Source of the DNA: an uncultured virus (IMG/VR IMGVR_UViG_3300025138_000017)
Lineage: Duplodnaviria; Heunggongvirae; Uroviricota; Caudoviricetes
DNA: 20,000 bases
Direction: 5' to 3' (one strand)
IMG/VR virus record: IMGVR_UViG_3300025138_000017
In this document: positions 1 to 17,847 of the stretch, in pieces
How the letters are laid out: every line of letters begins with the position of its first letter
Position numbering within the stretch: position 1 is the first letter of the stretch
The notes under the pieces: generated by a model
The model's input: only the letters and a program-made list of their open reading frames with translations
The model's database searches: none
What the model was told of the DNA's origin: nothing
Position numbers and translations under genes: made by a program

Positions 1-354
1 TCCAATATATGCTCCCAAGGTATCGTCGAGCCATTGAGATTTCTCAATATATTTTTTAATCCAATCTTTTTCTTCGGAAGAAAATCTTTCTCCTTCCATT
101 TGTAGAGTTCTTTTTAATGTGGGTTCATTTAGATCATATCCATAACTGTCTGGTGGAAACCCATCATGTGTTTCTGCTGGTGTGCTCTTAACGCACTCTA
201 ATGAAGCAGCATACTCAGCTCTATCTTCTTTTTTAAATTTACCTTTTGTTTTCCAATTTGGTAAATTTACATCTGGTGGATTTGCTGATACCCAATCGCT
301 ATATTCATTTAAGACGGTCAAAAGATCCGTAGGTAGTGTCAAAAGTTGTCTCAT
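1..354 (-). CDS. Hypothetical phage protein, 3'-truncated by the window edge (not in the ORF track)
   Basis: ATG at 354-352 directly after an in-frame TAA-TCA, with a GGGAGG SD ~13 nt upstream. Frame is open for 118 codons to base 1 (MRQLLTLPTDLLTVLNEYSDWVSANPP...THDGFPPDSYGYDL...WLDDTLGAYIG). Overlaps the glycosyltransferase 3' end by 50 nt. Confidence 0.8.
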   Translation of the reverse strand, partial: MRQLLTLPTDLLTVLNEYSDWVSANPPDVNLPNWKTKGKFKKEDRAEYAASLECVKSTPAETHDGFPPDSYGYDLNEPTLKRTLQMEGERFSSEEKDWIKKYIEKSQWLDDTLGAYIG

Positions 355-1147
355 TGATTATAAAAGCCTCCCGCTTATGTACTTGCTTGGAATCTATAGT
401 GTAGTGCAAAAATGCTTTTTTAGATCCAGGCCTCAATTCAGTTTCACGATACCCTGTAACAAAATTATATTTTGCATCATTAGGCATCCTTTTTATATTT
501 ATCTGCATATCTGGATTTTCATATAATGCTCTCCAGAATGCAAATGTATCCCAATACGTTAGCCCTTTAGGAAACGGTTTGGTGTTCTTTTCAACTGTAT
601 GTCTTTTATACCAATACAGCCATTGCTCCCATAGTTTTTGTGTTCGCTCATTCTTACGCCAGACAAACATTCCACAATGCCATCTAAACTTATGAGCCTT
701 TCCTTGTTTGTATAACTCAACATGATCAGGATTATAGTGTTCTAACTCTTCTCCAGGTATACCGGGTCCTACTTGATCGTCGTGTGTAAAGTAAACGACT
801 TTAGCATTGTAAGGTCTATTCTCTGACATGACAACATCTGCATCACCTAATAAATCAAAAACTTCTTCTATTTCATTGCTTAGTACAAATCCATCTACAT
901 CCAAATAACATGTAACGTCAAATGGTGTCAATGGTAATGCCCATAACTTTGTTCTACAATGTACTGGTACTGGTGTTATAAGATGATCAAACAAATGTCT
1001 ATCTTCATCTCTTACCCACTCTTCATGAGTAAACACTGCTACCTTTGCATCAGGTACCTCATCTTTCAATGATTGAACGCACATAACCATTGCTTCATAG
1101 AATGGTTTTGATAATGTAGCTACTAAAAGATAACCTCTAGTTTCCAT
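305..1147 (-). CDS. Putative GT-A fold glycosyltransferase (GT8-like / nucleotide-diphospho-sugar transferase)
   Basis: N-terminal GYLLVAT strand, SLK...VAVFT, TKLWALPLTPFDVTCYLDVD (DxD motif) followed by IEEVFDLL, and HCGMF (NxG-like) later; start overlaps the upstream gene by 11 nt. Confidence 0.75.
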   Translation of the reverse strand: METRGYLLVATLSKPFYEAMVMCVQSLKDEVPDAKVAVFTHEEWVRDEDRHLFDHLITPVPVHCRTKLWALPLTPFDVTCYLDVDGFVLSNEIEEVFDLLGDADVVMSENRPYNAKVVYFTHDDQVGPGIPGEELEHYNPDHVELYKQGKAHKFRWHCGMFVWRKNERTQKLWEQWLYWYKRHTVEKNTKPFPKGLTYWDTFAFWRALYENPDMQINIKRMPNDAKYNFVTGYRETELRPGSKKAFLHYTIDSKQVHKREAFIINETTFDTTYGSFDRLK

Positions 1148-1670
1148 CCTTTTCAGCTTCCTTAATTAAAATAGCAGATCCAAATGCTCTTGCCTCTTCG
1201 GCCGTTAATGCTGATCTAAGTTTTCTTTTTAAATTTTTATGTTCTGTATTTTTAACAGTAGGTATATCAAGAAACATAGATTTAACATTCCATAAGTCTG
1301 CTCGAGACTTTTCTCTTTCTTCTGCCTTCTTCATTTCTTCTGATGATTTTGACAAAGCTGACTGTATTGCTGCTTGTCTTTTAGTATTATGTCTAACTTC
1401 ATCTTCACTAAATTGTCTTTTTATATCTCTATACAATGGATGGTTTTGATCTTTAGGAATTCCTTTTTCTTGAGTAGCCATTCCATCTGGTCTTAATAAC
1501 ACACATGATAATTCTGTCCGAGCATTATTTGTATAATGTGGATTTACAATTACCGGTAATGTAGGATCCAGATGTAACTCTGGAATTGGAAGAGTTCTTA
1601 GTTCTTCTTTCTTGGGGGTTTCGACTGTGACTCCTTCTGGAATCTTAGCCATTTTAGGTTCTTCTGCCAT
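1137..1670 (-). CDS. Hypothetical protein, 177 aa (possible fibre assembly chaperone)
   Basis: ATG with GAGGA SD (1677-1681) and an upstream TATAAATA; charged helical C-half; NPHYTNNARTELSCVL loosely recalls tail-fibre-assembly N-terminal motifs (weak). Confidence 0.8.
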   Translation of the reverse strand: MAEEPKMAKIPEGVTVETPKKEELRTLPIPELHLDPTLPVIVNPHYTNNARTELSCVLLRPDGMATQEKGIPKDQNHPLYRDIKRQFSEDEVRHNTKRQAAIQSALSKSSEEMKKAEEREKSRADLWNVKSMFLDIPTVKNTEHKNLKRKLRSALTAEEARAFGSAILIKEAEKDGN

Positions 1671-1724: not shown

Positions 1725-4700
1725 TTAAGCTGTTCTAACCCATAGTTTTAATGTTGTTATTGTTTCTGTACCAGCCTGTACTGTTTGTCCAGCATATGCA
1801 TGAGTATAGGTTCCTTCGTATTGGGCTACAAAGTTAGTTGTAAATGAACCCTCATATGCTTTTTCATATTGTTTAGTGTATTGGCCAATGTATGCTTTTT
1901 CGTATTGTGTTGTAAATGATCCCTCAAATAATTGCGTATAGGTCTTAACATAGTTACCTGTAAACTGCTGATCAAATTGACCAGAGTATGATTTTTCATA
2001 CAAGCCAACATATGCTTTTTCAAATTGTTGAGTAAACTGACCTGTAAATGTTCCTTCGTAATCTTTAGAATATATTTTTAACCAAGTACCAACATATGAT
2101 CTTTGGAATTCGCCTTCATATTGTTTAGTATATTGACCAAGATATTCGCCAGAGTATTGGCCAAGGAATGATCCAACCCAAGCCTTTTCAAACTGTCCTA
2201 CATATATGCCTTCATATTGTTTGTTAAATGATCCTTCAAACTGTTTACTAAATTGTTTTGCATATTGTTTAGTATATTGTCCTGTGTACTGTCCTAAGTA
2301 TGACTTGACGTATGAACCAGTAAACTCACCTTCATATGTTTTAGTATATTGTCCAACATATGATGCACCAAATTGGCCTTCAAAAGTTCCTGTATACTGT
2401 CCAATATATGTACCTTGATATATTCCCTGGTATGCATGTGCACCTTCATATATTCCTGTCCAGTATCCTATGTATACTCCTTCATATGTTTTTTCATACT
2501 GTCTTGTAAACTGGCCAGTGTATTGGCCATCATATTGTCCACTAAATGTTCTGTCACCTGTCCATTGCTTGGCATATGCTTTCTGATAGTTTGCACTTAC
2601 ATATGTTGTGTTGAAGACTCCTTCCCACTGATGAGCATATTGCCCCTCGTATGATCTGTCTCCTTCAAATTGACCTGCATATTGTTTTACATATTCAACT
2701 ACAAATACCTTTTGATAATTAGCTGAGTATTGTCCTGTATATGTTCTTGATCCAGAGTATGCTTTGGTATAGGTTTTATTAAATACTCCAGTGTATTGAG
2801 TGCCATACTGACCTGTATATGTTCTGTCGCCTTCATATTGTTTAGCAAATTGGCCTTCCCAGTTTCTAGCAAACGAACCTTCATATGTTTGACCATATTC
2901 TTTTTGATAGTTCTTAGTATAAGCTCTAGCGTATTGGCCTACAAACTGCGTATTGAATACTCCAACATATATTCCTTCGTATAATGTTAAGTATGTTTTG
3001 CCATATTGTCCAACAAATGATTTTAAGTAATCAGTTGTAAATGATCCTTGATATGATTTAGTATAGTTAGTATCAAATGAACCTTCATATAATGCTAAGT
3101 ATTGTTTATTGAATTGGCCTTCGTATGCTTTAACGAACAATCCAGTATATGTTTTAACATATGATGTTTCAAATACACCTTCATATGCTTTTTCATAATT
3201 AGTTGCAAACTGCCCTTCATAAGTTTTTTCGTAATTAGTTCCAAACTGGCCTGTGTATGTTGTGTCATAGTTTGTAGCAAATTGACCTTCATACAGTTTA
3301 GCATATTGTACTCCAAACGCACCCTCATATTGAGTAGTATATTGGCCTTCATATGCTTTAGCATATGTAGTATTGAAGTCTCCTTCGTATTGAGCTACAT
3401 AATCTTTAGCATAGTTTGTACTAAATATTCCTTCATACAATTTAGCATATTGTGTAGAAAACTGTCCTTCATATGCTTTAGCATATTGTTGTGTATAGTT
3501 AGTTGTGTATGTTCCTTCAAACACACCACCGTATATGTTTGTATATTGACCAATGTATGCTTTTGCATATTGCTCACTAAATTGTCCTAAGAATGCTTTA
3601 GAGTATGATCCAGTATATGCTTTTGCATATTGCTCAATATAATCTTTAGAGTAGTTGTCTGTAAATGCACCAGTAAACTGACTAGCATATTGTCCAAGAT
3701 ATGCTTGAGCATAGTTGACTGATTCCCCACCTGTAAACTCTCTTGCATAAGAACCTGTATATGTTTTCTGGTATTGGTTAACATAGTTCTTAGCATAGTT
3801 ATCTGTAAACTGTCCTTCGTATACATCTGTATATTGGCCTACATAATTCTTAGTATAATTGGTAGTATATGTTCCTTCAAACACTCCACCGTATATGTTA
3901 GTGTATTGACCAACATAGTTCTTAGCATATTGTGTTTGATATATTCCTACAAATGCTTTGGTGTAAGTTCCTGTATAATCTTTTTGGTAATTAGTAGAAT
4001 ATATTTTTGTATAGTTATCTGTATACTGGCCAGTGTACTGTCTGTCATAGTTTCCAGCATAAGTTTTAACATATTCAGTTACATAATCTTTAGCATAGTT
4101 ATCAGCAAATTGTCCTGTAAACTGTCTATCATAATTACCCTCATATTGCTTAGCATATTGAGCAATATAATCTTTAGCATAGTTGTCTGTAAATTGACCT
4201 TCATATGCTTTATCAAAATTCTTTATATATGATTTAGCATACTGTGTGGTATAGGTTCCTTCGAAGACACCACCATATATGTTCGTATATTGACCAACAT
4301 AATTCTTAGCATAATTTTCTGTAAACGCACCTTCGTATTGAGAAACAAATACACCCTCATATGTTTTAGTGTATTGTGTTGTGTATGCTCTTTCATATGA
4401 AGCTGCAAACAATCCTACATACTGACCTTCAAATTGTCCTTCATAGTTAGTAGCATATTGTCTTTCCCAGTTTTTAGTATAGTTGGTCGTAAACAATCCT
4501 GTGTATTGGTCTGTAAATTGACCTACGAATGCTTTTGTATAGTTTCCAGTATATGCTCTATCATAGTTGCCCGTATAGTCTCTAGTATAATTGGTTGTAT
4601 ATTGAGCATCAAATGATCCAGTAAATTGACTTGCATATTGTCCAACATAATTTTTGGTATAGTTAGTTGCATATGATCCAGCAAACACGCCACCGTATAT

Positions 4701-7700
4701 GTTTGTATATTGACCAACATAGTTCTTAGTATAGTTTGTTACATAATCTCTAGAATAATTGGTTGTGTATACTCCAACATATGCTTTTGTCCACTGACCT
4801 GAATATGCTTTTTGGAAGTTCTTATTATAGTTACCAGTAAACTGTCCGGCAAACCCTCTTGAGTATTGACCGATCCATTGTTGAGCATAGTTGGTTACAA
4901 ACGTACCCGCAAACACGCCTTCATATATATTTGTATATTGACCTACATATGCTTTCTGATAAGCAGTAGAGTAAGTTCCGTCAAACGAACCACCATATAT
5001 GTTTGTGTATTGGCCTACGTATGCTCTTTGATATGCTGTGTTATATGTTCCTGAAAATGCACCTTCATAGATATTCGTATATTGACCAACATAGTTTTTA
5101 GTATAATTGGTTGCATACTGGCCAGTAAAGGTTTTAGTATATTGACCAGTGTATTGTTTTAAATAGTTAGTAGCATATTGACCAGTATATGTTTTAGTAT
5201 ATTGTCCTGTATATGTCTTAGTATAATTTACATCATAGTTTTTAGTATAATTGGTTGCATACTGACCAGCAAACGCTTTTGTATATTGACCTGTGTACTG
5301 TTTTAAATAGTTTCTAGTATATGTTCCACTAAACTGTGTATTGTAAGTTCCAGAATATGCTCTATCATAGTTTCCAGCATAAGTCTTAGTGTAATTACCA
5401 GTATATGATTTTGTGTATTGACCAGTATATTGTCTTAAAAAGTTGGTAGCATACTGACCAGAATATCCTTTAGTATAATTACCAGTATAAGAACCTGTAT
5501 ACTGTCCAGTGTATGCTCCAGTATATTGACCTGCATATGCTCTTTGATAGCTAGTGTCATATTGTTTTAAATAGTTTTTATTATATGAACCACTAAACTG
5601 CTTAGTATATTGACCAGTATATTGTTTTAAATAATTGGTTCCATACTGGCCAGCAAATTGTCTATTATATGTACCACTAAACTGTTTGTTATAGTTACCT
5701 GCATATGCTCTAGTGTAGTTAGTTGCATATGTTCCACTATATTGTGTAGCGTATGTTCCTGTGTACTGTCCAGAATAAGCTGTTGAGAAATATCCTGTAT
5801 ATTGTTTAGTATAGTTGCCTGTAAATTGTCCTGTGTACTGTCCAGTAAATCCTCTAGTATATTGTCCTGTATACTGTCTTAAATAGTTAGTACTATAGGA
5901 CCCTGTATATGTTGTACTAAAGTATCCTGTATACTGACCTGAATATGTTGCAGTAGTTTGAGAGAAACAACCTTCGTATTCTTCAAAGTCATCATCACCA
6001 GTATCAATAAAGATTCTACAATATGTACCACCACTACTGAATTGTTGAGATACTGACCCTACAAATGTTCTAGTATAGTTAGTTGTTTTTACATAGTTTA
6101 AAAATTGGCTCCCAAATTTACTAGAGACAACCCTGTTGTAAGTTACATTACCAGCAAACTGTCTAGTATAATTTACATTTGCAGTACCAGTAAATTGTTG
6201 AACTGCCCCAACATAGTTTCCTGTATATTGAGTAGATCTGGTTACTCTTACATAGTTTCCTGAATAAGCTCTTGTATAGTTGGTTCCATATGATCCACTA
6301 TATTGTGAATTATATGTTCCGGAAAATTGACTACTATATGTTCCAGCAAATTGTTTTGAGTAGTTTGTAGTTCTAGTTACCCTAGAATAACTTCCTGTCC
6401 ATTGTCTTGAGAAGTTTCCTGTATACTGTCCTGTGTATTGTCTTGTATAGTTAGTGCTGTAATATCCAGTATATGTCTTAGTATAGTTTCCTGAATATGC
6501 TTTTGTATAGTTACCTGTATACTGTCTTAAAAAGTTAGTACCATATGTTCCACTATACTGTGCTGAGTATTGACCTGTGTACGATCTAGTAAAGTTAGTT
6601 CCATATTGTCTTGTATAGTTGGTAGCATAGTATCCTGTATACTGTCCAGAATAGGTTCCACTATACTGTCCTGAATATGCACCAGAGTATGCTCTGTCAT
6701 AATTTCCTGTATAATGTTTAGTATAGTTAGTTCCATATGTTCCAGCAAATTGACTGGTGTACGTGCCACTATATGCTCTATCATAGTTTCCAGTATATCT
6801 TTTAGTATAGTTACCTGTATATGATTTAGTATATTGACCTGTGTATGCTTTTTGGAAGTTAGTACCATACGTTCCACTATATTGAGAACTATAGTTACCT
6901 GTGTACTGTCTTTGATACTGAGCCGTATAAGTTTTTAAATAGTTTTTATTATAGTCACCAGAGTATGCTCTGTTATAGTTTCCCGTATAATGTTTAGTAT
7001 AGTTAGTTCCATATGTTCCAGAATATTGTTTATTGTAGTTACCTGTATACTGTCTAGTATAGTTAGTAGCAAATGACCCTTCCCATATTCTATCATACTG
7101 TCCTATATAAGAACCAACATATGCTTTAGTATAGTTTCTAGCAAATGATCCTTCCCATATTCTATCGTATTGTCCTACATAAGATCCAACATATGCTTTA
7201 GTATAGTTTCTAGTAAATGATCCTTCCCATATTCTATCGTATTGTCCTATGTACTGACCAACATATGCTTTCTGATATTGAGCTGCGTATGGTCCTAAGA
7301 ATGTTCCTGTGTATACTCCAGTCCATTGCGTCTGGAATAATTTAGTATAGTTGGTATTATATACGCCAGTGTAGGTGGTGTTATAGGAACCTTCATATGC
7401 TTTCTGATATTGTTTAACATAATTCTTAGCATAGTTTGTAGCAAATGAACCTTCCCAGATTCTATCATATTGTCCTACATATTGGCCAACATAGTTTTTA
7501 GTGTAATTCTTTGCAAACGTTCCTTCGAATGCTCCTGTGTATTGTCCTAGCCAAACTTTAGCATATTGCTTTGCATATGCTTTTTGATATACGCCTGTAT
7601 ATGTTTTGGTGTATACGCCTGTAAATATTGTAGAGTATACTCCTTCCCATATCTTGGTGTACTGGCCTTCATACTGTGCAGCCCATTGTACAAGATATGC

Positions 7701-10700
7701 TTTTTGATATTGTTTTGTATATACTCCAGTCCATTGTTTTGCATATGAACCTTCCCACTGTTGTGCGTATGCTGCAACATATTGTTTAGCATATTGTTTT
7801 GAATACTGACCGACATAAGCCTTTTCATATTGTCCAAGGTAAACTTTATCATATTGGGTAACAAATGTTCCTTCCCATATTCTATCATATTGGCCTACGT
7901 ATTGGCCAACATATGCTTTCTCGTATTGTTTTGAATAAGCCTTTTCATATGTTTTTACATATTGTCCGGTCCACTGTTGTTGATATTGAGCAACATAGTT
8001 TTTAGCATAGTTGGTTGTATACTGTCCTGTGAATCTTCCTTCGTATTGTCCAGCCCATTGTTGTAGGTATTGGGCAACATAGTTTTTAGCATATGCAGTT
8101 TGGAATTCACCTGCATATCTTTTTTCGTATATTCCTGTCCACTGTTGCTGGTATTGTGCTGCATAGTCTTTTTGATACTGACGAAGATAAACACCAACAT
8201 AGTCTGTCTCATAAGATCCTTCATAATCTTTGGTGTATTGAGTAACAAACGTACCTTCCCATATTCTATCGTATTGTCCTATGTACTGACCAACATATGC
8301 TTTTTCGTATTGTTTAGCAAATGTTCCTTCCCATTGCTTAGTGTACTGACCTGCCCATTGTTGTTCGTATTGGGTTACATAATCTTTAGCATAGTTAGTA
8401 TTATAGTCGCCATCAAATGCTCTTTCGTATGCACCAGCATATGCCTTTTGATATTGTGTTACAAACTGGCCTTCAAATGCTCCTGTGTATTGTCCTACCC
8501 ATTGTTGCTGATATTGCTTAACATAATTCTTAGCATAGTTGGTTTCATAGTCGCCAAGATATGCTTTAGAGTATGAGCCTTCGTATTGTTTATCGTATTG
8601 AGTAACAAACGTACCTTCCCATATTCTATCGTATTGTCCTACCCATTGACCAACATAAGCCTTTTCATATTGCTTACTATATTGTTTTACATATTGACCA
8701 ATGTAATCTTTTGTATATTGAGCTACGTATTGACCAACATATTCTTTTGTATATTGTGCAACATAGTTCTTAGCATATTGTCCTGTGTATGCTTTTATAT
8801 AATTTGTAGTATACTGACCACCATATTGACCAGCATAGAGACCTACATATGCTTGGCCCCAGTTTTGTTCATATAATCCTGTGTATTGATTAATCCACGT
8901 CTTACCGTATACGCCTGTATACTGTTGAAGATAATTACGTGCGTAGATTCCTGCATACTGTTTTAAGTATTGTGTTGCGTATTGGCCAACGTATTGTTTA
9001 GCATAACCTTTGTTCCAATTACTTAAATAATTCTTTTCATAGGATCCAACATATGCTTTCTCCCATATTCTATCATATTGGCCAACATATGTCTTTGTGT
9101 ATTGAGCTTCGTATATTCCAACATAATCTTTTGTGTATGTTTTTATATACTGGCCTATGAAATCCTTTTCGTAGTTCTTAATATAAGAACCTACATAAGC
9201 TCCTTCAAATGTTTTTTGATATGCTCCAACATAATCTTTATTATATGATGTAACATAATCTTTTATATAACCAGCAGTATAGTTACCAACATAATTAGCT
9301 TCTAAGAAATATCCTGAGAATAATTCTGAAGCACTATCATATTGTCCAGTGAATGTTCTATCACCTTCGTATTGTTTTGTATACTGACCTGTATATGCTT
9401 TTAAGTATCCTTGAGTATAGAAACCATTATATTCTCTATCACCCTCGTATGCTTTTGTAAATTGCTTTTGATAGTTTGTACCAAGATACCCTTTACTAAA
9501 GTTTTGAGTAAATTGGCCAGTGTATGTTCTTGTTCCAGTATATTGTTTTGTGTATTGACCTGTGTATGATGCTGTCCAATTACCAATATATATTTTTTGG
9601 TATTGATCTGCATACTGTCCTGTATATGTTCTACTACCAGCGTATGTGCCTTCGTATGAGCCCGTATACTGCTTTGCATATTGCTCAACATACTGTCCCG
9701 TATAGTTAGCTGCGAAAATGCCTTCAAACTGTTTTACGCCGGTGTAATACCCTGTGTATTGTCCATCGAACGAGCCTTCAAATTGTTTAGAGTATGCTCC
9801 AGTCCATTGTTGGCCAAATGATCCTTCATATTGTTTACTATACTGTCCTGTGTAAATTCCTGTATAAGTTGTATTAAAAGATCCTTCAAATACACCTTCG
9901 TATATTTTACTGAATGTTCCTTCAAATTGGCCTTCGTATTGCCCCAGGTATGCACCCATGTACTGTCCAGCAAACGCTCCGGAATATTGGGAAATAAAGA
10001 ATCCATCAAACGAGCCTTCATATTGCTTAGTAAATGAGCCTTCGTATTGTTTGCTGTACAGACCAGTATAAGACTTAAGATATATTTTATCATATTGGCC
10101 AACATACTGTTTAACATATACGCCTGTATATGTTCCTTCAAAAGAACCTTCGTATTGGGTTAAGAATGTTCCTTCGTATTGTTTTGTGTAGTTTCCAGAA
10201 AATGAACCTTCATACAATCCGGTATATGTTTTATTAAAGTTTCCTTCATATTGTCCAATATATTCTTTTGTATATTGGGAAACAAAGACACCCTCATATT
10301 GTTTTTCGTAATGGTGTGTGTATATACCGACATATTGCTTTGCATATTGAGATGCATATTGGCCAACATAGTTTGTATTGTATCCTATATCAGCTAAAGT
10401 GTTTCTATTATCAACAAATGATCCACCTACTTGTACCCAGGTCTCACCTGAAGCTGCAGGGTTAGTCGCTGATAATTTATATTGTCCTATACCAGTAGCA
10501 TATATTTGATTTCTCAATCTCATTGCTAATAGTTTTATCTCTGCATCGGACATCTCTTTAATTGCAGAGTTTTGAATTTTTGCTGTTCTAACAACAGAAG
10601 GTGCAGAAACACCTTGGGTCTTACGCCATAAGGTATATGTAGTCGTACCACCTAAAGTGGTATCGGTCATTGTGGATCCAGTACTTGTATAAAGGCTATT

Positions 10701-11129
10701 GTTGGGATTTGTTTCAGACAAGTGGTAGGATCCCAAACCGGACGATGTAAGATTCGCAAGTGCTCTTGATATAAGGACAGAGTTTAGAGTATTACTATGC
10801 TCAGATGCATAGCCGCTGTCATTAAGAAACAATGGGTACACCATAGATGTTTCTGCGATCGAATTGAGATTTTGTTTAAGTGTATATGTTTGGGACGTTA
10901 TATTATTAGCAGCTGGATGAGTACCTACGCTTTCTGTTCTATAGGTATCAGTGAAAGAACCCATTGAGGTTCCCTGTCCATTTATGTTTAAAGTACCAAG
11001 GCCAGAAGTGCTTGTTGAGAATTCAGATAGAATTTGATGGACGGCGTAATCCATCTCGGTAGTCTGCATTTCCTGCACACCGAGAAAAGTACCCCCTCCG
11101 GTCGTTTTTATTCTAAGTGGATTTCCCAA
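1725..11129 (-). CDS. Giant (3134 aa) aromatic-tetrapeptide repeat protein, probable virion fibre/filament with mirror-registered arms
   Basis: Uninterrupted 9.4-kb ORF with a TTG start 4 nt after the upstream stop; ~250-aa non-repetitive N-domain, then (Y/F/W)xxx repeats over aa 250-3112, then a short C-terminal strand; located in a tail-fibre cluster. Confidence 0.85.
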   Translation of the reverse strand: MGNPLRIKTTGGGTFLGVQEMQTTEMDYAVHQILSEFSTSTSGLGTLNINGQGTSMGSFTDTYRTESVGTHPAANNITSQTYTLKQNLNSIAETSMVYPLFLNDSGYASEHSNTLNSVLISRALANLTSSGLGSYHLSETNPNNSLYTSTGSTMTDTTLGGTTTYTLWRKTQGVSAPSVVRTAKIQNSAIKEMSDAEIKLLAMRLRNQIYATGIGQYKLSATNPAASGETWVQVGGSFVDNRNTLADIGYNTNYVGQYASQYAKQYVGIYTHHYEKQYEGVFVSQYTKEYIGQYEGNFNKTYTGLYEGSFSGNYTKQYEGTFLTQYEGSFEGTYTGVYVKQYVGQYDKIYLKSYTGLYSKQYEGSFTKQYEGSFDGFFISQYSGAFAGQYMGAYLGQYEGQFEGTFSKIYEGVFEGSFNTTYTGIYTGQYSKQYEGSFGQQWTGAYSKQFEGSFDGQYTGYYTGVKQFEGIFAANYTGQYVEQYAKQYTGSYEGTYAGSRTYTGQYADQYQKIYIGNWTASYTGQYTKQYTGTRTYTGQFTQNFSKGYLGTNYQKQFTKAYEGDREYNGFYTQGYLKAYTGQYTKQYEGDRTFTGQYDSASELFSGYFLEANYVGNYTAGYIKDYVTSYNKDYVGAYQKTFEGAYVGSYIKNYEKDFIGQYIKTYTKDYVGIYEAQYTKTYVGQYDRIWEKAYVGSYEKNYLSNWNKGYAKQYVGQYATQYLKQYAGIYARNYLQQYTGVYGKTWINQYTGLYEQNWGQAYVGLYAGQYGGQYTTNYIKAYTGQYAKNYVAQYTKEYVGQYVAQYTKDYIGQYVKQYSKQYEKAYVGQWVGQYDRIWEGTFVTQYDKQYEGSYSKAYLGDYETNYAKNYVKQYQQQWVGQYTGAFEGQFVTQYQKAYAGAYERAFDGDYNTNYAKDYVTQYEQQWAGQYTKQWEGTFAKQYEKAYVGQYIGQYDRIWEGTFVTQYTKDYEGSYETDYVGVYLRQYQKDYAAQYQQQWTGIYEKRYAGEFQTAYAKNYVAQYLQQWAGQYEGRFTGQYTTNYAKNYVAQYQQQWTGQYVKTYEKAYSKQYEKAYVGQYVGQYDRIWEGTFVTQYDKVYLGQYEKAYVGQYSKQYAKQYVAAYAQQWEGSYAKQWTGVYTKQYQKAYLVQWAAQYEGQYTKIWEGVYSTIFTGVYTKTYTGVYQKAYAKQYAKVWLGQYTGAFEGTFAKNYTKNYVGQYVGQYDRIWEGSFATNYAKNYVKQYQKAYEGSYNTTYTGVYNTNYTKLFQTQWTGVYTGTFLGPYAAQYQKAYVGQYIGQYDRIWEGSFTRNYTKAYVGSYVGQYDRIWEGSFARNYTKAYVGSYIGQYDRIWEGSFATNYTRQYTGNYNKQYSGTYGTNYTKHYTGNYNRAYSGDYNKNYLKTYTAQYQRQYTGNYSSQYSGTYGTNFQKAYTGQYTKSYTGNYTKRYTGNYDRAYSGTYTSQFAGTYGTNYTKHYTGNYDRAYSGAYSGQYSGTYSGQYTGYYATNYTRQYGTNFTRSYTGQYSAQYSGTYGTNFLRQYTGNYTKAYSGNYTKTYTGYYSTNYTRQYTGQYTGNFSRQWTGSYSRVTRTTNYSKQFAGTYSSQFSGTYNSQYSGSYGTNYTRAYSGNYVRVTRSTQYTGNYVGAVQQFTGTANVNYTRQFAGNVTYNRVVSSKFGSQFLNYVKTTNYTRTFVGSVSQQFSSGGTYCRIFIDTGDDDFEEYEGCFSQTTATYSGQYTGYFSTTYTGSYSTNYLRQYTGQYTRGFTGQYTGQFTGNYTKQYTGYFSTAYSGQYTGTYATQYSGTYATNYTRAYAGNYNKQFSGTYNRQFAGQYGTNYLKQYTGQYTKQFSGSYNKNYLKQYDTSYQRAYAGQYTGAYTGQYTGSYTGNYTKGYSGQYATNFLRQYTGQYTKSYTGNYTKTYAGNYDRAYSGTYNTQFSGTYTRNYLKQYTGQYTKAFAGQYATNYTKNYDVNYTKTYTGQYTKTYTGQYATNYLKQYTGQYTKTFTGQYATNYTKNYVGQYTNIYEGAFSGTYNTAYQRAYVGQYTNIYGGSFDGTYSTAYQKAYVGQYTNIYEGVFAGTFVTNYAQQWIGQYSRGFAGQFTGNYNKNFQKAYSGQWTKAYVGVYTTNYSRDYVTNYTKNYVGQYTNIYGGVFAGSYATNYTKNYVGQYASQFTGSFDAQYTTNYTRDYTGNYDRAYTGNYTKAFVGQFTDQYTGLFTTNYTKNWERQYATNYEGQFEGQYVGLFAASYERAYTTQYTKTYEGVFVSQYEGAFTENYAKNYVGQYTNIYGGVFEGTYTTQYAKSYIKNFDKAYEGQFTDNYAKDYIAQYAKQYEGNYDRQFTGQFADNYAKDYVTEYVKTYAGNYDRQYTGQYTDNYTKIYSTNYQKDYTGTYTKAFVGIYQTQYAKNYVGQYTNIYGGVFEGTYTTNYTKNYVGQYTDVYEGQFTDNYAKNYVNQYQKTYTGSYAREFTGGESVNYAQAYLGQYASQFTGAFTDNYSKDYIEQYAKAYTGSYSKAFLGQFSEQYAKAYIGQYTNIYGGVFEGTYTTNYTQQYAKAYEGQFSTQYAKLYEGIFSTNYAKDYVAQYEGDFNTTYAKAYEGQYTTQYEGAFGVQYAKLYEGQFATNYDTTYTGQFGTNYEKTYEGQFATNYEKAYEGVFETSYVKTYTGLFVKAYEGQFNKQYLALYEGSFDTNYTKSYQGSFTTDYLKSFVGQYGKTYLTLYEGIYVGVFNTQFVGQYARAYTKNYQKEYGQTYEGSFARNWEGQFAKQYEGDRTYTGQYGTQYTGVFNKTYTKAYSGSRTYTGQYSANYQKVFVVEYVKQYAGQFEGDRSYEGQYAHQWEGVFNTTYVSANYQKAYAKQWTGDRTFSGQYDGQYTGQFTRQYEKTYEGVYIGYWTGIYEGAHAYQGIYQGTYIGQYTGTFEGQFGASYVGQYTKTYEGEFTGSYVKSYLGQYTGQYTKQYAKQFSKQFEGSFNKQYEGIYVGQFEKAWVGSFLGQYSGEYLGQYTKQYEGEFQRSYVGTWLKIYSKDYEGTFTGQFTQQFEKAYVGLYEKSYSGQFDQQFTGNYVKTYTQLFEGSFTTQYEKAYIGQYTKQYEKAYEGSFTTNFVAQYEGTYTHAYAGQTVQAGTETITTLKLWVRTA
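1794..10382 (-). repeat. Degenerate 12-nt / 4-aa coding repeat array (e.g. YTGQ, YEGQ, YTKN, YVGQ)
   Basis: Aromatic residue at nearly every fourth position for ~2,860 aa; higher-order 24-aa (72-nt) and 120-aa (360-nt) duplications, e.g. an identical 47-nt stretch at 8235-8281 and 8595-8641. Confidence 0.95.
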
Positions 11130-11133
11130 TTTA

Positions 11134-14100
11134 CTAAGCCTTTAATTTAAACGCGCTATCCCCAAATACGCTACCAGTATTTATAAAACTTACTCGACTA
11201 GCATCATAACCTATTATAGCTGATCCTGGCTCGCCTCCGTTTCCTGACTGTGCGTATTGAGAATAGTGGGTTCCTGGGTTAGCAACATTCTGTGATGCAT
11301 CTGAGTCATCATTATACCCGCCTGCACCTGTTCCTAGTTGACCTAGTAATCCACCATTTCCTCCATGTATGCCTAATGCTGTGGATGCATTAGTGCCATT
11401 TCTATCTGAACTGCTTTCTGAAATGAAAGCTCCTGAATTCCATCCAGCACCAGTTCCACCGATGCCTCCAGAGCTACTTACTCCGTTTACGGGATAGCCA
11501 CCGCCACCTCCGCCACCACCGCCACCGGCGATGATACCATAATTTTCTATATAAACTTCTATACCGTTACCCATCTTAATAGCGTCACCACCATTAGCAC
11601 CATTCTGTCCAGTTGTAGCACCTAGACCAGCTACACCAGATTTACCAATAATATTTCCATCTGGTTTAACTAATATTTTAACTTTATGGTTAATATTTTG
11701 AATAGCTCCAAATCCTGATAAGTCAAGTGCTGGTGTAGTTTGATGATCTGAATATACATATACATCATCTGCTATTGTAATGTTAACATGTTGAGGTCTT
11801 GTTGCTTTTGATTTACCTAAGCTACTTAAATGAGCTGATAGGTTAAATTGTGATGTATTACTAGAAAGAGTTATATCTGTTCTTTCATAATTGACGCCTG
11901 TTATCTTCCATTGGCCGTCTTCTTTCTTTCTTACAATTGATACATCTCTCCATGCATCATTTTCTTTTATTTTTATATCTTTAGCTTGTTTCCATATGCT
12001 AGCATCTTTCACTCTAATTAAGCCACCATCATCTGTTAGCTCACCACTCTTAGTGTTAGCTACTGCAGTAGTTGTCACATATGAAGTATGGAATGTTTGA
12101 GGTCCTGCAAAGTTTGTTGCAAATCTCAAGGTGTCTCCTATACTGGCATAAGCCCCTTGATATACTCCACCATATGCTTTTACATAAGCACCTACGTATG
12201 TTTTATTAAATGCACCTTCATATAATTTAGAATACACTTTACCAAACTGAGCACCAAATTGTCCTTCGTATTCTTTAGTATATTGTTTGACGTATACTTT
12301 ATTATACACTCCTACAAATGCACCTTCATACTGACCTGTGAATAGAGCTCCATATTGTTTAATATATTGGCCTATAAATGTTCCTGTGTATTGACCAAGG
12401 TACACGCCTTCGTATGCTTTGATATAATTCTTTTCAAAGTTGTGTGTAACTAGTCCAGTAAAGTTTCCATTTGCTGATGCGTTGTATAAAGCTGGTCCTT
12501 GGAATTGTCTTGAATATACACCTGTCCAATGTTGAGTATATGTTTTAACATAGTCTTTATTATATTGACCAATGTACTGTCCTGTGTATGCTTTTTCATA
12601 TTGCTTTACAAAAGAACCTTCAAACAATCTTGAGTATTGTCCTACCCATATTTTATTGTAAACCTTTTCATATGCTTTAGAATATTGCTTTGTATATATT
12701 CCTGTATAGTAACCAATATAATATCCTATTGTTGTCCATGTCTTTTCATACTGTTTTAGATATCCTTTTTGATAAGACCTTGACCATCCGCTGGCGCCTC
12801 CAGCTCCATAATAAAGGGTTTTACTATGCATATAGCTTGAGGTAAATTGACCCCCGTAATGAGCTATAAAATTCACACCAGAATTGACTCCTAGATAACC
12901 AGTTCTTGCATCTGACCATGCAGATAGGTAGAACATGAGGTCAACCAAGGTTGAACCTTTGATGTATGCTTGCGGGCCCGAATCCGAATATGATTTTGCA
13001 TACGTTGCCAGGTTGCCAGTTGCTCCAAGATAAGAATTTAACTCCAAATCTTCAAAGTTTCTTTGATAATAAACACCACCTGTTCCTTGATATCCCGTTG
13101 CATCTGCACCAGCCTCTGGGTCCGCATCGGCAGTATTGCCACCAATATATGCTCTTGTCTGTGCACCAGTATATTGAGTTATGAATTCGCCACCCAGCAG
13201 GCCTGCTTTGGAATAAACGGTTCCACCAGACGCATAATACAGTGTACCAAATTCTCTATTGTTACCTTGTTCCCAAGACACACCTTGTGCGTTTAGATAA
13301 CTTCCTGTGCTCCCGGATGCATAGTTAGTACCACCACTATCTGAATAGTTAAGTACTTGAGATGGTGTGTCAGATGCGTTTACAAATAAACGAGAATAGC
13401 CTATATCGCCACTCCATGATTTAGAGTATTGAGCTGTAAAACCTAGGGAAACTGTACCCTCAAACCCTTCACCATCTTCTTCAGAATAAGTATTAACTAC
13501 TCTTACGTATGCGGTACCTTGATAATAGATCCCTTCGTACTGACTAGTTGCACCCCAAAATTTGCTGAAGTGGCGGAGAAATTGCGACTCATAATTTCCT
13601 ATATAAGTTTTGGCCCAAGTTTTGTAATACGATTTGTGATATTGCTTTAAGTACTCTTTTCCATAATGAGCAATATAATTTAAGTTTTCTGATCTATATG
13701 AATTAAATACTCCTTCATAATCCTTACTGTAATGTTTTGTCCACTGCGTAGTATAAGCTGCACCAAAACTTCCTTCAAAGGTTCCTTCGTATTGTCCTAG
13801 ATATGCTTTCTCGTATTGAGTGGTGAATACGCCCTCGTACACACCTTCGTATGTTTTAGTGTATGTTTTACTATAAGAAAGTCCGGATGCAAATGTTCCT
13901 TCAAATGCACCCTCGTACATTACTAGATAAGGACCACCTAAAAATTGTTTAGCAAATTGACGAGAGTAGCTAGCTATATAACTTTTATTATAATAACCAG
14001 TAAACGCTCCTTCAAACTGTCTGTTGAAAGCTCCCTCATAAGTCTTGCTAAAGCTATTACCAAACTGTCCTTCAAATTGACTAGTAAATGAACCTTCGTA

Positions 14101-14349
14101 AGCCTTGCTGTATTCTTTGCTGTATTGTTTTGAGTATACGCCTAACCACACACCATCGTATTGTTTGCCCCATTGTTTTTCGTATTGGCCTAGATATGTT
14201 TTTGTGTAGTCGCCTAGATAAGTTTTTAGATATGACGCAAGAAAATGCTCTATGCCTCTAATTTGATTAGCATAGTTAGTCCCAACATAGGATGCTGCGA
14301 ACTGTCTATCGTCACCTGCGAAAGACTTTGCGTAATTAATATCTGCCAC
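11134..14349 (-). CDS. 1071-aa tetrapeptide-repeat protein with C-terminal gp38-like glycine-rich adhesin domain
   Basis: GTG start with GGGGAG SD (14355-14360); Yxxx repeats at aa ~40-290 and ~525-734; Trp-spaced linker (IWKQ..AWRD..GQWK); C-terminal GGDAIKMG...IENYGIIAGGGGGGGGG and further Gly-rich motifs typical of T2/T6/S16 gp38 polyglycine adhesins. Confidence 0.75.
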   Translation of the reverse strand: MADINYAKSFAGDDRQFAASYVGTNYANQIRGIEHFLASYLKTYLGDYTKTYLGQYEKQWGKQYDGVWLGVYSKQYSKEYSKAYEGSFTSQFEGQFGNSFSKTYEGAFNRQFEGAFTGYYNKSYIASYSRQFAKQFLGGPYLVMYEGAFEGTFASGLSYSKTYTKTYEGVYEGVFTTQYEKAYLGQYEGTFEGSFGAAYTTQWTKHYSKDYEGVFNSYRSENLNYIAHYGKEYLKQYHKSYYKTWAKTYIGNYESQFLRHFSKFWGATSQYEGIYYQGTAYVRVVNTYSEEDGEGFEGTVSLGFTAQYSKSWSGDIGYSRLFVNASDTPSQVLNYSDSGGTNYASGSTGSYLNAQGVSWEQGNNREFGTLYYASGGTVYSKAGLLGGEFITQYTGAQTRAYIGGNTADADPEAGADATGYQGTGGVYYQRNFEDLELNSYLGATGNLATYAKSYSDSGPQAYIKGSTLVDLMFYLSAWSDARTGYLGVNSGVNFIAHYGGQFTSSYMHSKTLYYGAGGASGWSRSYQKGYLKQYEKTWTTIGYYIGYYTGIYTKQYSKAYEKVYNKIWVGQYSRLFEGSFVKQYEKAYTGQYIGQYNKDYVKTYTQHWTGVYSRQFQGPALYNASANGNFTGLVTHNFEKNYIKAYEGVYLGQYTGTFIGQYIKQYGALFTGQYEGAFVGVYNKVYVKQYTKEYEGQFGAQFGKVYSKLYEGAFNKTYVGAYVKAYGGVYQGAYASIGDTLRFATNFAGPQTFHTSYVTTTAVANTKSGELTDDGGLIRVKDASIWKQAKDIKIKENDAWRDVSIVRKKEDGQWKITGVNYERTDITLSSNTSQFNLSAHLSSLGKSKATRPQHVNITIADDVYVYSDHQTTPALDLSGFGAIQNINHKVKILVKPDGNIIGKSGVAGLGATTGQNGANGGDAIKMGNGIEVYIENYGIIAGGGGGGGGGGYPVNGVSSSGGIGGTGAGWNSGAFISESSSDRNGTNASTALGIHGGNGGLLGQLGTGAGGYNDDSDASQNVANPGTHYSQYAQSGNGGEPGSAIIGYDASRVSFINTGSVFGDSAFKLKA
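11178..11185 (-). promoter_or_regulatory. Possible T4-type late promoter (TATAAATA) for the giant gene
   Basis: Exact consensus inside the 3' end of the upstream gene, ~50 nt before the giant ORF start; chance matches are plausible in AT-rich DNA. Confidence 0.45.
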
Positions 14350-14360
14350 TCAGGCTCCCC

Positions 14361-14699
14361 TTATGTTAGAGTCTGATACCAGATGTCGCCGTTAGTGCCT
14401 ATAGAGTTACTACTTGGTGCTGAACTAGATATGTATATCTTTTGATTAGGTGTATGTGCAAATGATCCACTTGCTACACCTGCTGCATTAGTATTTGCAA
14501 ATGTTACACCAGTGACGTTTACAGACGTATTAGATGCTGCTGTTATTCTACCTTTAGCATTTACTGTGAACGTAACTAATTGAGTATTATTCGAAGTGTG
14601 CGTTGCTGCACTTACACCAGTATCTGATAAAGCTGTATCAACAACCTTAGCTGATGAATTAACTACCTCGGTACTGCCGTGTAAAATTTGATCAGACAT
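14361..14699 (-). CDS. Small tail-fibre-motif protein (112 aa), possible adaptor
   Basis: Contains LSDTGVSAA...FTVNAKGRITAASN and ISSSAPS...GTNGDIWYQ, both common phage tail-fibre motifs; start overlaps the upstream stop by 8 nt. Confidence 0.7.
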   Translation of the reverse strand: MSDQILHGSTEVVNSSAKVVDTALSDTGVSAATHTSNNTQLVTFTVNAKGRITAASNTSVNVTGVTFANTNAAGVASGSFAHTPNQKIYISSSAPSSNSIGTNGDIWYQTLT

Positions 14700-17600
14700 C
14701 TTCTTCCTCGTTTTCCTCTACATTAGGTTCTAGTTCTTTTACTCTTTCGGTCAACTCTTTGACGGCTTCTATCAGTAATGGTATCAGCGCATTATAGTTA
14801 ACTGTTTTAAACCCACGACTATTTATATCTACAGCGTGAGGCAACACGTTCTCCAATTCTTGAGCTATAACCCCATAGTCTGGTGTTCCAACTCTCATGT
14901 CTCCGATGTTGTTATTCCATACAAATTCATAACCACCAAGAGCATTTACTTTATCTAATGCAGTGTCTATCTTTAATATGTTATCTTTTAATTGTTGGTC
15001 TGATGAATAACTAGCTACTAGATCATCAGTAGCGTATATGTTATTTGCCAATACAGCTGTAGTATTAGCTAACGTATCTCCAACTACTATGCTAGTATCA
15101 AAGTATCCATTTTTGAATGATTTAGCTGCTGAGCCAATATCCCATTGATTGGTATTTGATGCAAACACATGACCATTAACTGAAGCATTTGCAAATACTA
15201 ATTGAACAGTATTTGCTCCATTACCAATTTGTACTATATTATTACCTGCGCCAGTTGTAGATGCTCCTGTTAACTTAAGAGAATTTGTAACTGTTACATT
15301 TGCAGATCCTAATTCAGTAGCTGTTAATGTTGTGTCTGATGGGAATTGAGCTGATACTCCAACCTGTAAGTGATCAACAACTAAGTTGTTAGATGTTAAT
15401 GCTGTTGCGTTAGCACTTATACCAGTATTAGAGAATATAACATTACTTGTATTTGCTAATGTAATATCATCACCAACTGATAGATCACCAACAATAGCAC
15501 CGGACGCTGCATTTACTTCTCCAGTAATGTCTACGTCTCCACCTGCTGTTATAACTCCTGATGTGTTTATTGTTGCACCAATTAGATCCCATCTAGCACT
15601 TGCAGCACCTAAGGTTAATCCATTAGCATTCGGTAAGACATTAGAAGCAACATCTGCTGTAAATGTTACTTTGTCTGTTGCAGCACTACCTATGATTGTA
15701 TTACCTGAAACTGTTAAGTCATTTCTTATTACTGCATTGTAAACATTTGCTTCTTTGTTATCAGCTATATCTAAATCATTTGATAATGTAGTAACTCCAA
15801 CAATGTTTGCTGATCCTGATAATGTTGTAGCACCTGTTACACCAAGTGTGTTTGCAAGAGATGCTGCTTTTAATACTGTTAAGGTTCCATCTGTGTGAAC
15901 AGCTGTAGAAGTTAATGATGTGTTTACTGTACTATTACCTACTGATAATTTAGATGCAGATAAGTTTACGTTTGCGCCTACATTATAGGCTACTGTTGTA
16001 TTAGATGTTCCTGTAACTGCTATACCATCACCAAAGGTTGCGTGGCCTGTATGTGTTGATAGTGTTGTGACTTTTAATACATTTGTATTTGTTGTTGCAG
16101 CTGCTTCTATATTAGCACTTGCTGTTATAACGCCTGTAGATGTAAGTGTACCAGATGTGTTTGCATTTGTAAATGACGCATTGTGCCATCTGTGATTTGT
16201 GTCACCAAGTACAACATTATTACCGTGTAGAGGTATAAGACCTTGTGTACTATTTCCAACTAATCCTTTTACTATAAGTCTATCAAAACCGTGTGTTGCG
16301 TTTGCTGCACCTGCATTACCTAAAGTTATTGTTCTGGTATTACCTGCTAATGATGTTACTAATGTATTGACTGTTGAGTTAGCAACAGTGAATTGAGCAT
16401 TAACAGATACATTGCCACCAACTGTAGCATTTCTAGTTATTGTTAAATCATTGTTGGATGTTATATCTTCACCGACTAAATCATCAGCTACTACATCCCA
16501 TCTTGCTGCTACGCTACCTAAACTTTTACTTCCATTAGCACTCGGTATTATGTTTGTATCGACTACACCAACAACTGATATTGTATCGCTTGCTGCTGAG
16601 CCTAAATCTGTATTGCCTTGAACTACAAGGTCTGTGTCTATGTTTACTGATGCATCAAAGTCTGCATCTTTAGTAACTTTTATTTTATCTGAGAATACTG
16701 CGTTAGCTGTAACTGTTAATAGATCACTATTAGCATTACCAATAGTAGCATTAGCTGTAGTTGTTAGGATCCCATCAATGTTTGTTGCTGAATTAATATC
16801 TAAATTCGTACCATGAATATTCATATTGGTAGAATCTATTAATGTGTTTGTTCCTGATACATTAAAGTCTGTTGACGTGATATCGGTTAATGCATTGTCA
16901 ACATCTAAGTTTGCATTTGCATCTATCTTAGTATTGAATATGTTAGTTGTAGCATTAGAAGTAAATGTTACTGCTGTTGCATCCATCTCTACTGCTGTGC
17001 TATTAGCTTTTAATACACCAGCATTGATATCTATTACTGCTGCATCTATGTTTACATTTGAACTTACATTAAACTCACCACCGTTAATTGCTGTGTTAGT
17101 AGATGAGAAATTGGTTAATGTATTATTAAAGTCTGCATCAGCATTAATGTCTAGTGGTGTATTGAATACATTGAGTCCAGCATTTGATGTAAATATATTT
17201 GCAGTAGGATCTATATTAATCTTATGTGTTGTTGAATTACTCTGTGTTACATTAAGTGCACCAGCCAGTACATCAAAGCTAGCTGCATCAAAGTTTACAT
17301 TAGATGTAATATTTAATTCACCATTTTCAACAACTGTATTACTAGATGTTATTTGTGTTAATGTATTGTCAATATCTAAGGTTGCATTTAGATCTATCTT
17401 AGTATTGAATATATTTGTTACTGCATTGGATTCAAATACTTTTGCAGTAGAATTAATTGTTAGATTGTTTGAAGTAGAGTTTGTTGTTAGTTGTACGCCA
17501 GGTGCAAAGTGTGCATTTGATTGTGCATGTATTATTGCATTAGCTGTACTGTTAGCTATGAATACTACATTTGAACTAATAATTAAATTAGCTGCTGCAG

Positions 17601-17847
17601 CCTTTGTTCCATATACTGTACTATTAGCTGTTACACCAGATAACTTTTGTTCTACTAATAAACTATTAGCACTAAAGAAACCATTAACATAAGAGTTACC
17701 AGTCGTGCAAGCACCTTGAGTATTTGCAACTGTTGATACGACAAACTTTTCCATATCGTAAGTAATTCTATTAGTGAGGTCAACCCACTCTCTAAATGTA
17801 TCTGACGAAGGCGTAATGTTAGCGTTTAAATAATTATTACTAGCCAT
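14692..17847 (-). CDS. Tail fibre protein with C-terminal intramolecular chaperone (peptidase S74)
   Basis: N-terminal DTFREWVDLTN motif; N/T/S/A-rich beta repeats; repeated GN..G.A..D and P......LG....RW motifs; C-terminal SDQQLKDNI...ALDKVNAL.GYEFVW...GVIAQELENVLP.AV...VNYNALIPLLIEAVKEL plus coiled coil. Confidence 0.88.
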   Translation of the reverse strand: MASNNYLNANITPSSDTFREWVDLTNRITYDMEKFVVSTVANTQGACTTGNSYVNGFFSANSLLVEQKLSGVTANSTVYGTKAAAANLIISSNVVFIANSTANAIIHAQSNAHFAPGVQLTTNSTSNNLTINSTAKVFESNAVTNIFNTKIDLNATLDIDNTLTQITSSNTVVENGELNITSNVNFDAASFDVLAGALNVTQSNSTTHKINIDPTANIFTSNAGLNVFNTPLDINADADFNNTLTNFSSTNTAINGGEFNVSSNVNIDAAVIDINAGVLKANSTAVEMDATAVTFTSNATTNIFNTKIDANANLDVDNALTDITSTDFNVSGTNTLIDSTNMNIHGTNLDINSATNIDGILTTTANATIGNANSDLLTVTANAVFSDKIKVTKDADFDASVNIDTDLVVQGNTDLGSAASDTISVVGVVDTNIIPSANGSKSLGSVAARWDVVADDLVGEDITSNNDLTITRNATVGGNVSVNAQFTVANSTVNTLVTSLAGNTRTITLGNAGAANATHGFDRLIVKGLVGNSTQGLIPLHGNNVVLGDTNHRWHNASFTNANTSGTLTSTGVITASANIEAAATTNTNVLKVTTLSTHTGHATFGDGIAVTGTSNTTVAYNVGANVNLSASKLSVGNSTVNTSLTSTAVHTDGTLTVLKAASLANTLGVTGATTLSGSANIVGVTTLSNDLDIADNKEANVYNAVIRNDLTVSGNTIIGSAATDKVTFTADVASNVLPNANGLTLGAASARWDLIGATINTSGVITAGGDVDITGEVNAASGAIVGDLSVGDDITLANTSNVIFSNTGISANATALTSNNLVVDHLQVGVSAQFPSDTTLTATELGSANVTVTNSLKLTGASTTGAGNNIVQIGNGANTVQLVFANASVNGHVFASNTNQWDIGSAAKSFKNGYFDTSIVVGDTLANTTAVLANNIYATDDLVASYSSDQQLKDNILKIDTALDKVNALGGYEFVWNNNIGDMRVGTPDYGVIAQELENVLPHAVDINSRGFKTVNYNALIPLLIEAVKELTERVKELEPNVEENEEEDV
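14820..14827 (-). promoter_or_regulatory. Possible internal late promoter (TATAAATA)
   Basis: Exact consensus ~120 nt upstream of the 112-aa gene, within coding sequence; may be chance. Confidence 0.3.
16860..17450 (-). repeat. Three ~75-80 aa internal repeats in the tail fibre
   Basis: FESNAVTNIFNTKIDLNATLDIDN / FTSNAGLNVFNTPLDINADADFNN / FTSNATTNIFNTKIDANANLDVDN; atctatcttagtattgaatat occurs at both ~16921 and ~17392. Confidence 0.85.

Follow-up and report, generated by a model that had tools for sequence, protein, structure and literature searches.

A candidate out-and-back fibre of a T4-like marine phage, with a three-unit base completed by the protein's C-terminus

Fibre tips in which the chain runs out and back are already known, and the closest described case is gp37 of phage T4. 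As described in PMC6957217, its collar domain D10 is assembled from residues 811-881 and 1010-1026 with the needle domain D11 lying between them, and this needle has ~130 residues, is trimeric, carries seven iron sites on His residues and contacts the receptor with its tip. A second precedent is provided by MPEG1, whose MABP prism bears an inserted hyper-extended hairpin (PMC7593815). Here, we analyze a gene at positions 1725..11129 on the minus strand of a 20,000-nucleotide (nt) stretch of DNA from an uncultured virus of the Caudoviricetes (IMG/VR record IMGVR_UViG_3300025138_000017; this whole stretch is referred to as the window, and all positions are those of the window). We consider it quite likely that the product of this gene is a fibre on the virions of an uncultured marine phage of T4-like (Kyanoviridae-like) type, and that this fibre is formed by a single out-and-back chain.

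As in gp37, the topology would be out-and-back and the base would be completed by a C-terminal segment (~17 residues in gp37), and both proteins come from T4-like phages. The gp37-type organization of a base built from two discontinuous segments around a needle is found in the window protein and its family, as indicated by the homology of the C-terminal tail, its confident placement in a structural model (predicted local distance difference test, pLDDT, of 96-98) and the variable length of the insert. Unlike gp37, the window protein has arms of ~1,400 residues each, a 4-residue aromatic repeat, no HxH motif and a three-unit base within one chain. A prism-type base and an extended hairpin may also be shared with the MABP domain of MPEG1/perforin-2 and with the C-terminal prism of bacterial MACPF proteins, whereas each phage unit contains a helix and the phage hairpin is built of repeats and exceeds theirs in length roughly a hundredfold. 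Neither of the two precedents, gp37 or the MPEG1 MABP domain, has a repeat array, a variable length or such a size; the proposed repeat ribbon and its length range are what is unprecedented here. None of the sources looked up gives the family a functional name, and a literature search, with subscription journals outside its coverage, found no description of it.

A three-unit base and its C-terminal strand

The gene comprises 3,134 codons and a stop, and begins with a TTG codon at 11129, as a previous reading made from the window sequence only (hereafter the sequence-only reading) had proposed. This start is borne out by its position as the earliest start codon past an in-frame stop, the stop of the upstream gene lying 4 nt before it, and by its alignment with an ATG at the same codon in L003 (2,838 amino acids, aa), which together with L004 (2,645 aa), likewise beginning with ATG, represents the close relatives used here.

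The sequence-only reading had further described three similar units in the N-terminal part of the protein, each with a GS.(F/M).D strand and a T(Y/L).L(W/K) strand, and every quoted motif was located as stated. Base unit 1 (10845..11129, minus strand, as for all features given below; ~aa 1-95) consists of a PLRI strand (NPLRI at residue 3), a QEM helix, a SGLGTL strand (residue 42) and a hairpin formed by GSFTDTY (residue 57) and TYTLKQN (residue 81). Base unit 2 (10590..10844; ~aa 96-180) contains YPLFL (residue 98), SGLGSY (residue 130) and the GSTMTDT-LGG-TTYTLWRKT hairpin (GSTMTDT at residue 151, TYTLWRK at residue 164). The N-terminal part of base unit 3 (10398..10589; ~aa 181-244) contains RTAKI (residue 181), a KEM helix, TGIGQY (residue 212) and the GSFVDNRNT strand (residue 236), and is without a last strand; the strand that completes this unit, TITTLKLWVRTA, is encoded at 1728..1763 and forms the very end of the protein (aa 3123-3134).

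Within the window protein itself, unit 2 matched unit 3 by BLASTP (E 2e-5), and the match of unit 1 to unit 2 was not significant (E 0.67). Using unit profiles built from 9 natural minimal members of the family (<=300 aa) and compared by hhalign, all three pairs were related, with probabilities of 99.2% for units 2 and 3 (E 9e-19), 97.9% for units 1 and 2 (E 3e-12) and 94.6% for units 1 and 3 (E 1.4e-8). In the alignment of units 2 and 3, the terminal 'ty.lw..T' of unit 2 falls on the C-terminal 'LW.r.a', the mini-array between the two parts of unit 3 appearing as a gap.

An AlphaFold2 run on the 513-aa homologue P0007, based on a 93-sequence alignment, gave pLDDT values of 95-98 at residues 1-250 and 490-513, corresponding to the base and the last 24 residues. 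Each unit of this model is ordered beta-beta-alpha-beta-beta-beta, and the final strand of unit 3 (482-511) is supplied by the C-terminus at a pLDDT of 96-98; the extents of this strand and of strands 227-229 and 234-255 are compatible with an antiparallel pair. By analogy to unit 2 of the model, W3130 of the window protein would face G235 (sum 3365). In the family alignment, the top covariation of any tail column was K3128-Q233 (average-product-corrected mutual information, APC-MI, 0.80), and antidiagonals 3360-3367 were enriched. The proposal that the missing strand of unit 3 is contributed by the extreme C-terminus is thus upheld by the homology of unit 2 to the tail, by the P0007 model and by covariation, and the location of both termini in the base is supported.

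The model also suggests what kind of fold this base might have. VIA-align placed four rows on top, 2qp2_A (Z 6.3, root-mean-square deviation 3.5, 115 aligned residues), 8b6v_A (Z 6.1), 3tow_A (Z 5.4) and 6sb1_A (Z 5.1), all of which are beta-prism domains, 3tow_A being a MABP domain and 6sb1_A the perforin-2 P2 domain. These alignments cover 114-120 residues and a model range of 42..513 that takes in the C-terminal strand, and Z scores below 8 may mean a common arrangement only. The three similar sub-units of a prism are found in the homology of the units and in their common order of secondary-structure elements, from which we infer the symmetry itself. Judging from the model, the base is probably pseudo-threefold and beta-prism-like, and the resemblance to beta-prism and MABP domains may serve as a lead rather than as an assignment of membership. 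A search of PDB sequences with the family profile returned 0 matches at E <= 1, and Foldseek with the P0007 model found nothing at E <= 0.001 in PDB and BFVD, a BFVD row for T4 protein 37 standing at E 1.2.

A search with aa 1-250 against 1.84 billion representatives yielded 320 clusters at E <= 1e-3, and the family set analyzed here comprises 152 proteins (150 listed, the window protein and that of Phage C48C1). The N-domain and the C-terminal tail (...G.T[IV]....T.....LW.R.A) are both kept in 113 of the 152, at lengths of 273-3,347 aa, and the remaining 39 are mostly cut by contig ends. In an alignment of 95 sequences, the hairpin loop spans 11-38 residues in unit 1, 6-16 in unit 2 and 17-2,888 in unit 3. 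The claim that the whole array is inserted into one hairpin of the base is therefore supported by the family at large, in which homologues with inserts of different length do exist. A side observation concerns the 305-aa, N-terminally cut P0101, in which a ~50-residue mini repeat array with a central GSHGGW turn is present in the unit 1 hairpin in addition to one in unit 3, so that the unit hairpins seem to be general insertion points.

The GenBank phage collection held no DNA nearly identical to the window, and a protein search of it led only to Phage C48C1 (Kyanoviridae), whose homologue has 3,347 aa (L001 11983-22026) and is located after baseplate and tail-fibre genes. Its repeats are of a different flavour (RTRxSxY, NF/NY-G types), and its second half carries several globular inserts of ~110-250 aa as well as, judged by eye, a ~70-residue stretch present twice in tandem. 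The third-best match, P0005 (716 aa, 58% base identity), shares the VKQF, GDRTY and GTRTY landmarks of the window N arm and then turns into unrelated low-complexity sequence without the tail, probably reflecting a frameshifted or chimeric gene call. P0042, used as a query for related loci, retrieved a single locus, which is situated where a contig ends.

The repeat array and the register of its arms

Between ~aa 245 and 3122, an aromatic residue occupies every 4th position (lag-4 aromatic autocorrelation 0.93). In the regular segments, position 0 of the repeat is Y/F/W in ~99% of cases, followed by T/V/E/A at +1, by G (40%), K (23-29%), T or R at +2 and by Q/N/A/T at +3. A collagen-like or other triplet-repeat fibre was considered and rejected, the period being 4 and the autocorrelation negative at lag 3. 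A RiPP precursor was likewise rejected, given that the repeats of the two arms are locked in register and that a folded base frames them.

This composition bears on an alternative that we regard as unlikely, namely that the hairpin is real, but that three chains close up into a six-strand needle resembling that at the far end of T4 gp37, the aromatic/Gly face pointing inward. Such a needle would be in keeping with phage fibres being usually trimers and with the trimeric gp37 needle (PMC6957217), the alternation of aromatics with Gly on one face would offer a packable core, and features of the trimer type, an S74 chaperone among them, occur in the fibre genes nearby. However, three homologous units are already present in one chain, which suggests a pseudo-trimer monomer; the ~2,850 array residues include 6 His and no HxH metal sites; and about a quarter of the aromatic/Gly face is Lys, which would be awkward in a closed core.

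The array can be divided according to its phase. The outward N arm (6375..10397; aa 245-1585) consists of segment N1, reaching to aa 466, an irregular zone (9306..9731; aa 467-608) with four G[DST]RxY/F phase shifts of +2 at aa 498, 532, 563 and 589, and the uninterrupted segment N2 (aa 609-1585). It is followed by the tip zone (5958..6374; aa 1586-1724), comprising irregular repeats on the N side and then a loop. The return C arm (1764..5957; aa 1725-3122) begins with the uninterrupted segment C2 (aa 1725-2769), continues with an irregular zone (2436..2822; aa 2770-2898) associated with four GxRxY/F starts at aa 2767, 2793, 2823 and 2858, the first just ahead of the zone, and ends with C1 (aa 2899-3120). 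The resulting order of segments (N1, irregular, N2, tip, loop, C2, irregular, C1) is palindromic, whereas tandem duplication would give a direct order.

The mirror relationship extends to individual motifs. Between the 8 DRIW sites of the N arm and the 8 C-arm TNIY[GE]G sites, 7 pairs had a sum of exactly 3364, as opposed to a maximum of 5 pairs, reached 5 times, in 200,000 random placements and to 3 at the best direct-repeat offset. The four GxRxY/F pairs have sums of 3355-3356. Each of the four phase classes had its peak of mutual information (MI) between residues i and c-i at c = 3364-3367 (z 4.1-5.6). Of the 94 mid-repeat Gly residues of the N arm, 89 lie opposite Gly when c is set to 3366 (36.5 expected; 19-40 in control registers), and the best register of the basal segment is c = 3362, with 25 of 33 Gly mirrored. 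At the matched register, residues of one kind meet their own kind on one face (aromatics, Gly and Lys/Thr/Arg alike), and Gln/Asn lies opposite Thr/Glu/Ala on the other.

The same analysis was applied to the two close relatives. N1 and C1 measure 224 and 222 residues in the window protein, 225 and 223 in L003 and 454 and 454 in L004, and N2 and C2 measure 977 and 1045, 849 and 899, and 603 and 590, respectively. Distal mid-repeat Gly residues are mirrored in 90/104, 70/75 and 57/60 cases at registers c of 3366, 3069 and 2875, which are offset by 0, 1 and 4 residues from the register predicted by the base. The two arms of these three relatives are in register and equal within 0-4 residues across more than 1,100 pairs, and the joint change of arm lengths in L003 and L004 agrees with the earlier expectation that both arms scale together. 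Among 92 complete homologues with arrays of at least 60 residues, the share of proteins with a phase break was highest in the three central bins (each 5% of the array), at 68-88% compared to 23-55% elsewhere; in the 19 proteins with four breaks or fewer, 32 of 47 occupied bins were central, and the central sequences are turn-like (LYYGG, FFGG).

Most tail fibres are parallel trimers, and this counts for a conventional parallel shaft, with the N-terminus at the phage, the C-terminus distal, and the mirror symmetry and the tail having other causes. The lack of a confident AlphaFold2 hairpin for the array and the weak mirror statistics across the family as a whole would also fit such a shaft. On the other hand, a mirrored order of protein segments is not producible by DNA duplication, and a parallel shaft would not lead one to expect the seven motif pairs of exactly equal sum, the Gly mirroring (89/94, 70/75 and 57/60), the equal arm changes in relatives, the turn motif at the array centre, the homology of the tail to the last strand of unit 2 and the confident position of the tail in the base (pLDDT 96-98). 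We therefore regard a parallel arrangement as very improbable.

The tip loop, downstream genes and genomic context

The only two cysteines of the protein are located at the tip, where C1704-RIFIDTGDDDFEEYEG-C1721 (5967..6020) forms a Cys-flanked acidic loop, the cysteines enclosing IDTGDDDFEEYEG. This loop is likely to be the turn and the contact site. At its position, L003 has a GGGEGG loop and L004 a proline-rich stretch, and the tip sequences of the three proteins are unrelated except for SQQFSSGGT.

A near-identical IMG/VR fragment with the same gene (G001, 99.9% identical) allowed a comparison at the nucleotide level. Across the 9,405-nt gene, 12 real nt differences were found, five of them synonymous, and the changed residues are A74S, A1650V, D1713S (3 nt, GAT to TCA) and F1715N (2 nt, TTT to AAT). 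Accordingly, 5 of the nt changes lie inside 9 nt of the tip loop and 7 in the rest of the gene, a clustering that would fit a contact site under diversifying change. The loop was also considered as the target of a diversity-generating retroelement, a possibility rejected as far as the 20-kb window goes, which contains no template-like copy of it beyond generic repeat similarity.

A set of three genes is present 3' of the fibre gene at four loci (window 1-1670, minus strand; L003 18573-20671; L004 17999-20028; L001 22121-24001). In the window, the first (1137..1670) encodes a 177-aa protein without a family, syntenic in L003, L004 and C48C1; the second (305..1147) a 280-aa protein resembling GT-A/GT8-type sugar transferases (GT, glycosyltransferase); and the third (1..354, cut by the window end) a possible 2-oxoglutarate (2OG)-Fe(II) oxygenase, or Asp-Asn hydroxylase-like protein. 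The 280-aa protein matches Nucleotid_trans at E 0.07, below the cut-off, and its L004 orthologue matches PF01501 Glyco_transf_8 at E 3.4e-6, above the cut-off; for the third gene, the full-length L003 orthologue (260 aa) returned Atlas leads only for an oxygenase/hydroxylase. Synteny of the set with C48C1 was seen at BLASTP E values of 7e-6 to 2e-22, the third gene reaching E 2e-22. This conserved arrangement suggests that the downstream set may modify the fibre.

That the gene is followed, in the window, L003, L004 and C48C1, by genes of a small protein, of a GT8-like transferase and possibly of a 2OG oxygenase also favours a different function, in which the protein would not be a host-contact fibre, but a hydroxylated/glycosylated scaffold or surface coat, such as virion 'hair' for particle sticking or shielding. 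The enzyme assignments behind it are weak, as the match of the window's transferase-like protein does not reach the Pfam cut-off and the oxygenase has the standing of a lead, and the clustered changes of the tip loop fit a specific contact site. We give this function roughly one chance in five; it would add to the hairpin architecture and does not compete with it.

All long frames of the window are on the minus strand, and its G+C content is ~35%. The protein encoded by 1725..11129 matches 0 Pfam families, and its sole PHROG row is phrog_2468 (E 6.2e-5, 0 stretches passing alone); its neighbours carry tail-fibre PHROGs, so that the gene sits in a tail-fibre module. Immediately upstream, the protein encoded by 11134-14349 has 1,071 aa and includes a Gp38 adhesin domain (PF05268, E 2.6e-12). 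This neighbour also contains aromatic-every-4th repeats, arranged in two blocks (~aa 32-269 and 544-738) that flank a non-repeat middle, and its Gp38 end has a poly-Gly run; its two blocks, when tested, showed no sign of mirroring (best mirror value 0.129, best direct value 0.192). At 14692-17847 lies the gene of a tail fibre of 1,051 aa with N/T/S/A-rich repeats and a C-terminal Peptidase_S74 chaperone (PF13884, E 1.3e-13); after it comes a 112-aa protein whose PHROG matches, to head decoration, are weak. The window further encodes a 75-aa virion structural protein (phrog_473) and 643 residues that form the C-terminal part of a large protein (phrog_358), all on the minus strand.

The proposed fibre and its implications

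In the model that we propose, residues 1-244 would form a base of three homologous ~85-residue units, each composed of strand, strand, helix, strand and beta-hairpin, the hairpin of unit 3 being hugely extended. The chain would exit the base after GSFVDNRNT, run outward over ~1,340 residues in a strand in which every fourth residue is Tyr/Phe/Trp, cross the irregular tip zone and the Cys-flanked acidic loop (aa 1704-1721), and return antiparallel in a fixed register in which residue i faces approximately residue 3362-3366 minus i, so that its last 12 residues would serve as the final strand that unit 3 lacks. The resulting ribbon would present, on one face, rows of aromatic pairs alternating with Gly-Gly and Lys/Thr/Arg rows in the manner of a 'tyrosine zipper' and, on the other, Gln/Asn against Thr/Glu/Ala. 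The arms would be hydrogen-bonded as a two-stranded ribbon, stabilised by the cross-strand aromatic rows beside the Gly-Gly rows. With a beta-strand rise of ~0.33 nm per residue, ~1,340 pairs would correspond to a ribbon of up to ~0.45 micrometre if straight. The base would dock on the virion, the ribbon would provide reach and the tip loop would touch the host; as in PAAR-type caps, the pseudo-trimer base may sit on a threefold partner of the virion.

Like the proposed ribbon, designed tryptophan-zipper hairpins and the single-layer sheet of OspA are without a buried core and carry cross-strand aromatic pairs or long side chains on an exposed face. They are 12-residue peptides or short segments, and to our knowledge none of them is a natural repeat array of variable length.

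Several observations weigh against this model. We know of no precedent for a free two-stranded ribbon ~0.45 micrometre long, and near the tip the N side is ~60-80 residues longer than the C side. AlphaFold2 did not model the array of P0007 (259-476; pLDDT <50), and for the tip region of the window protein (aa 1480-1886; 3-sequence alignment) it returned a mean pLDDT of 33.5 and a predicted template modelling score (pTM) of 0.27. The proposed pairing of the tail with strand 232-244 relies on model confidence, strand extents, homology and covariation rather than on measured contacts, and the residue numbers of the covarying pair K3128-Q233 add up to 3361, which differs from 3362/3366 by an odd number. 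Three register tests across the family were weak. When phase events of 75 proteins were matched, the mirror order gave 206 matches, against 232 for the direct order and 184 for shuffles. Judged by identity, the best register lay no more than 2 residues from the base register in 3 of 91 proteins (chance 3.8), in a test that is biased at extreme offsets, and on -4/0/+4 in 13 of 91 (chance ~2.3). Among 22 long members, 6 had an MI register no more than 6 residues away (chance 2.4).

Combining all parts, the protein would be a monomer whose pseudo-threefold beta-prism base caps a trimeric partner on the virion and bears a self-supporting ribbon of ~0-0.45 micrometre, set by equal gain of 4- or 8-residue repeats in both arms, modified by the co-encoded transferase and oxygenase and carrying a fast-evolving receptor loop at its tip. 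We hold this picture tentatively, at somewhat worse than even odds.

If the hairpin model is true, we know of no beta-hairpin that would come near this one in length, and the fibre principle would be new for phages: a single chain held by a four-residue aromatic repeat, its length determined by a symmetric gain of repeats at two distant places in one gene. It would raise the questions of how a coreless ribbon is stable, how the arms stay equal in evolution and what a phage gains from reach in dilute sea water. Structural work has easy targets in the short natural members (270-520 aa), and the repeat could serve as a designable, length-programmable rigid spacer. On the combined picture given above, the family would represent a new class of repeat-protein fibres and a way for ocean phages to widen their capture radius.

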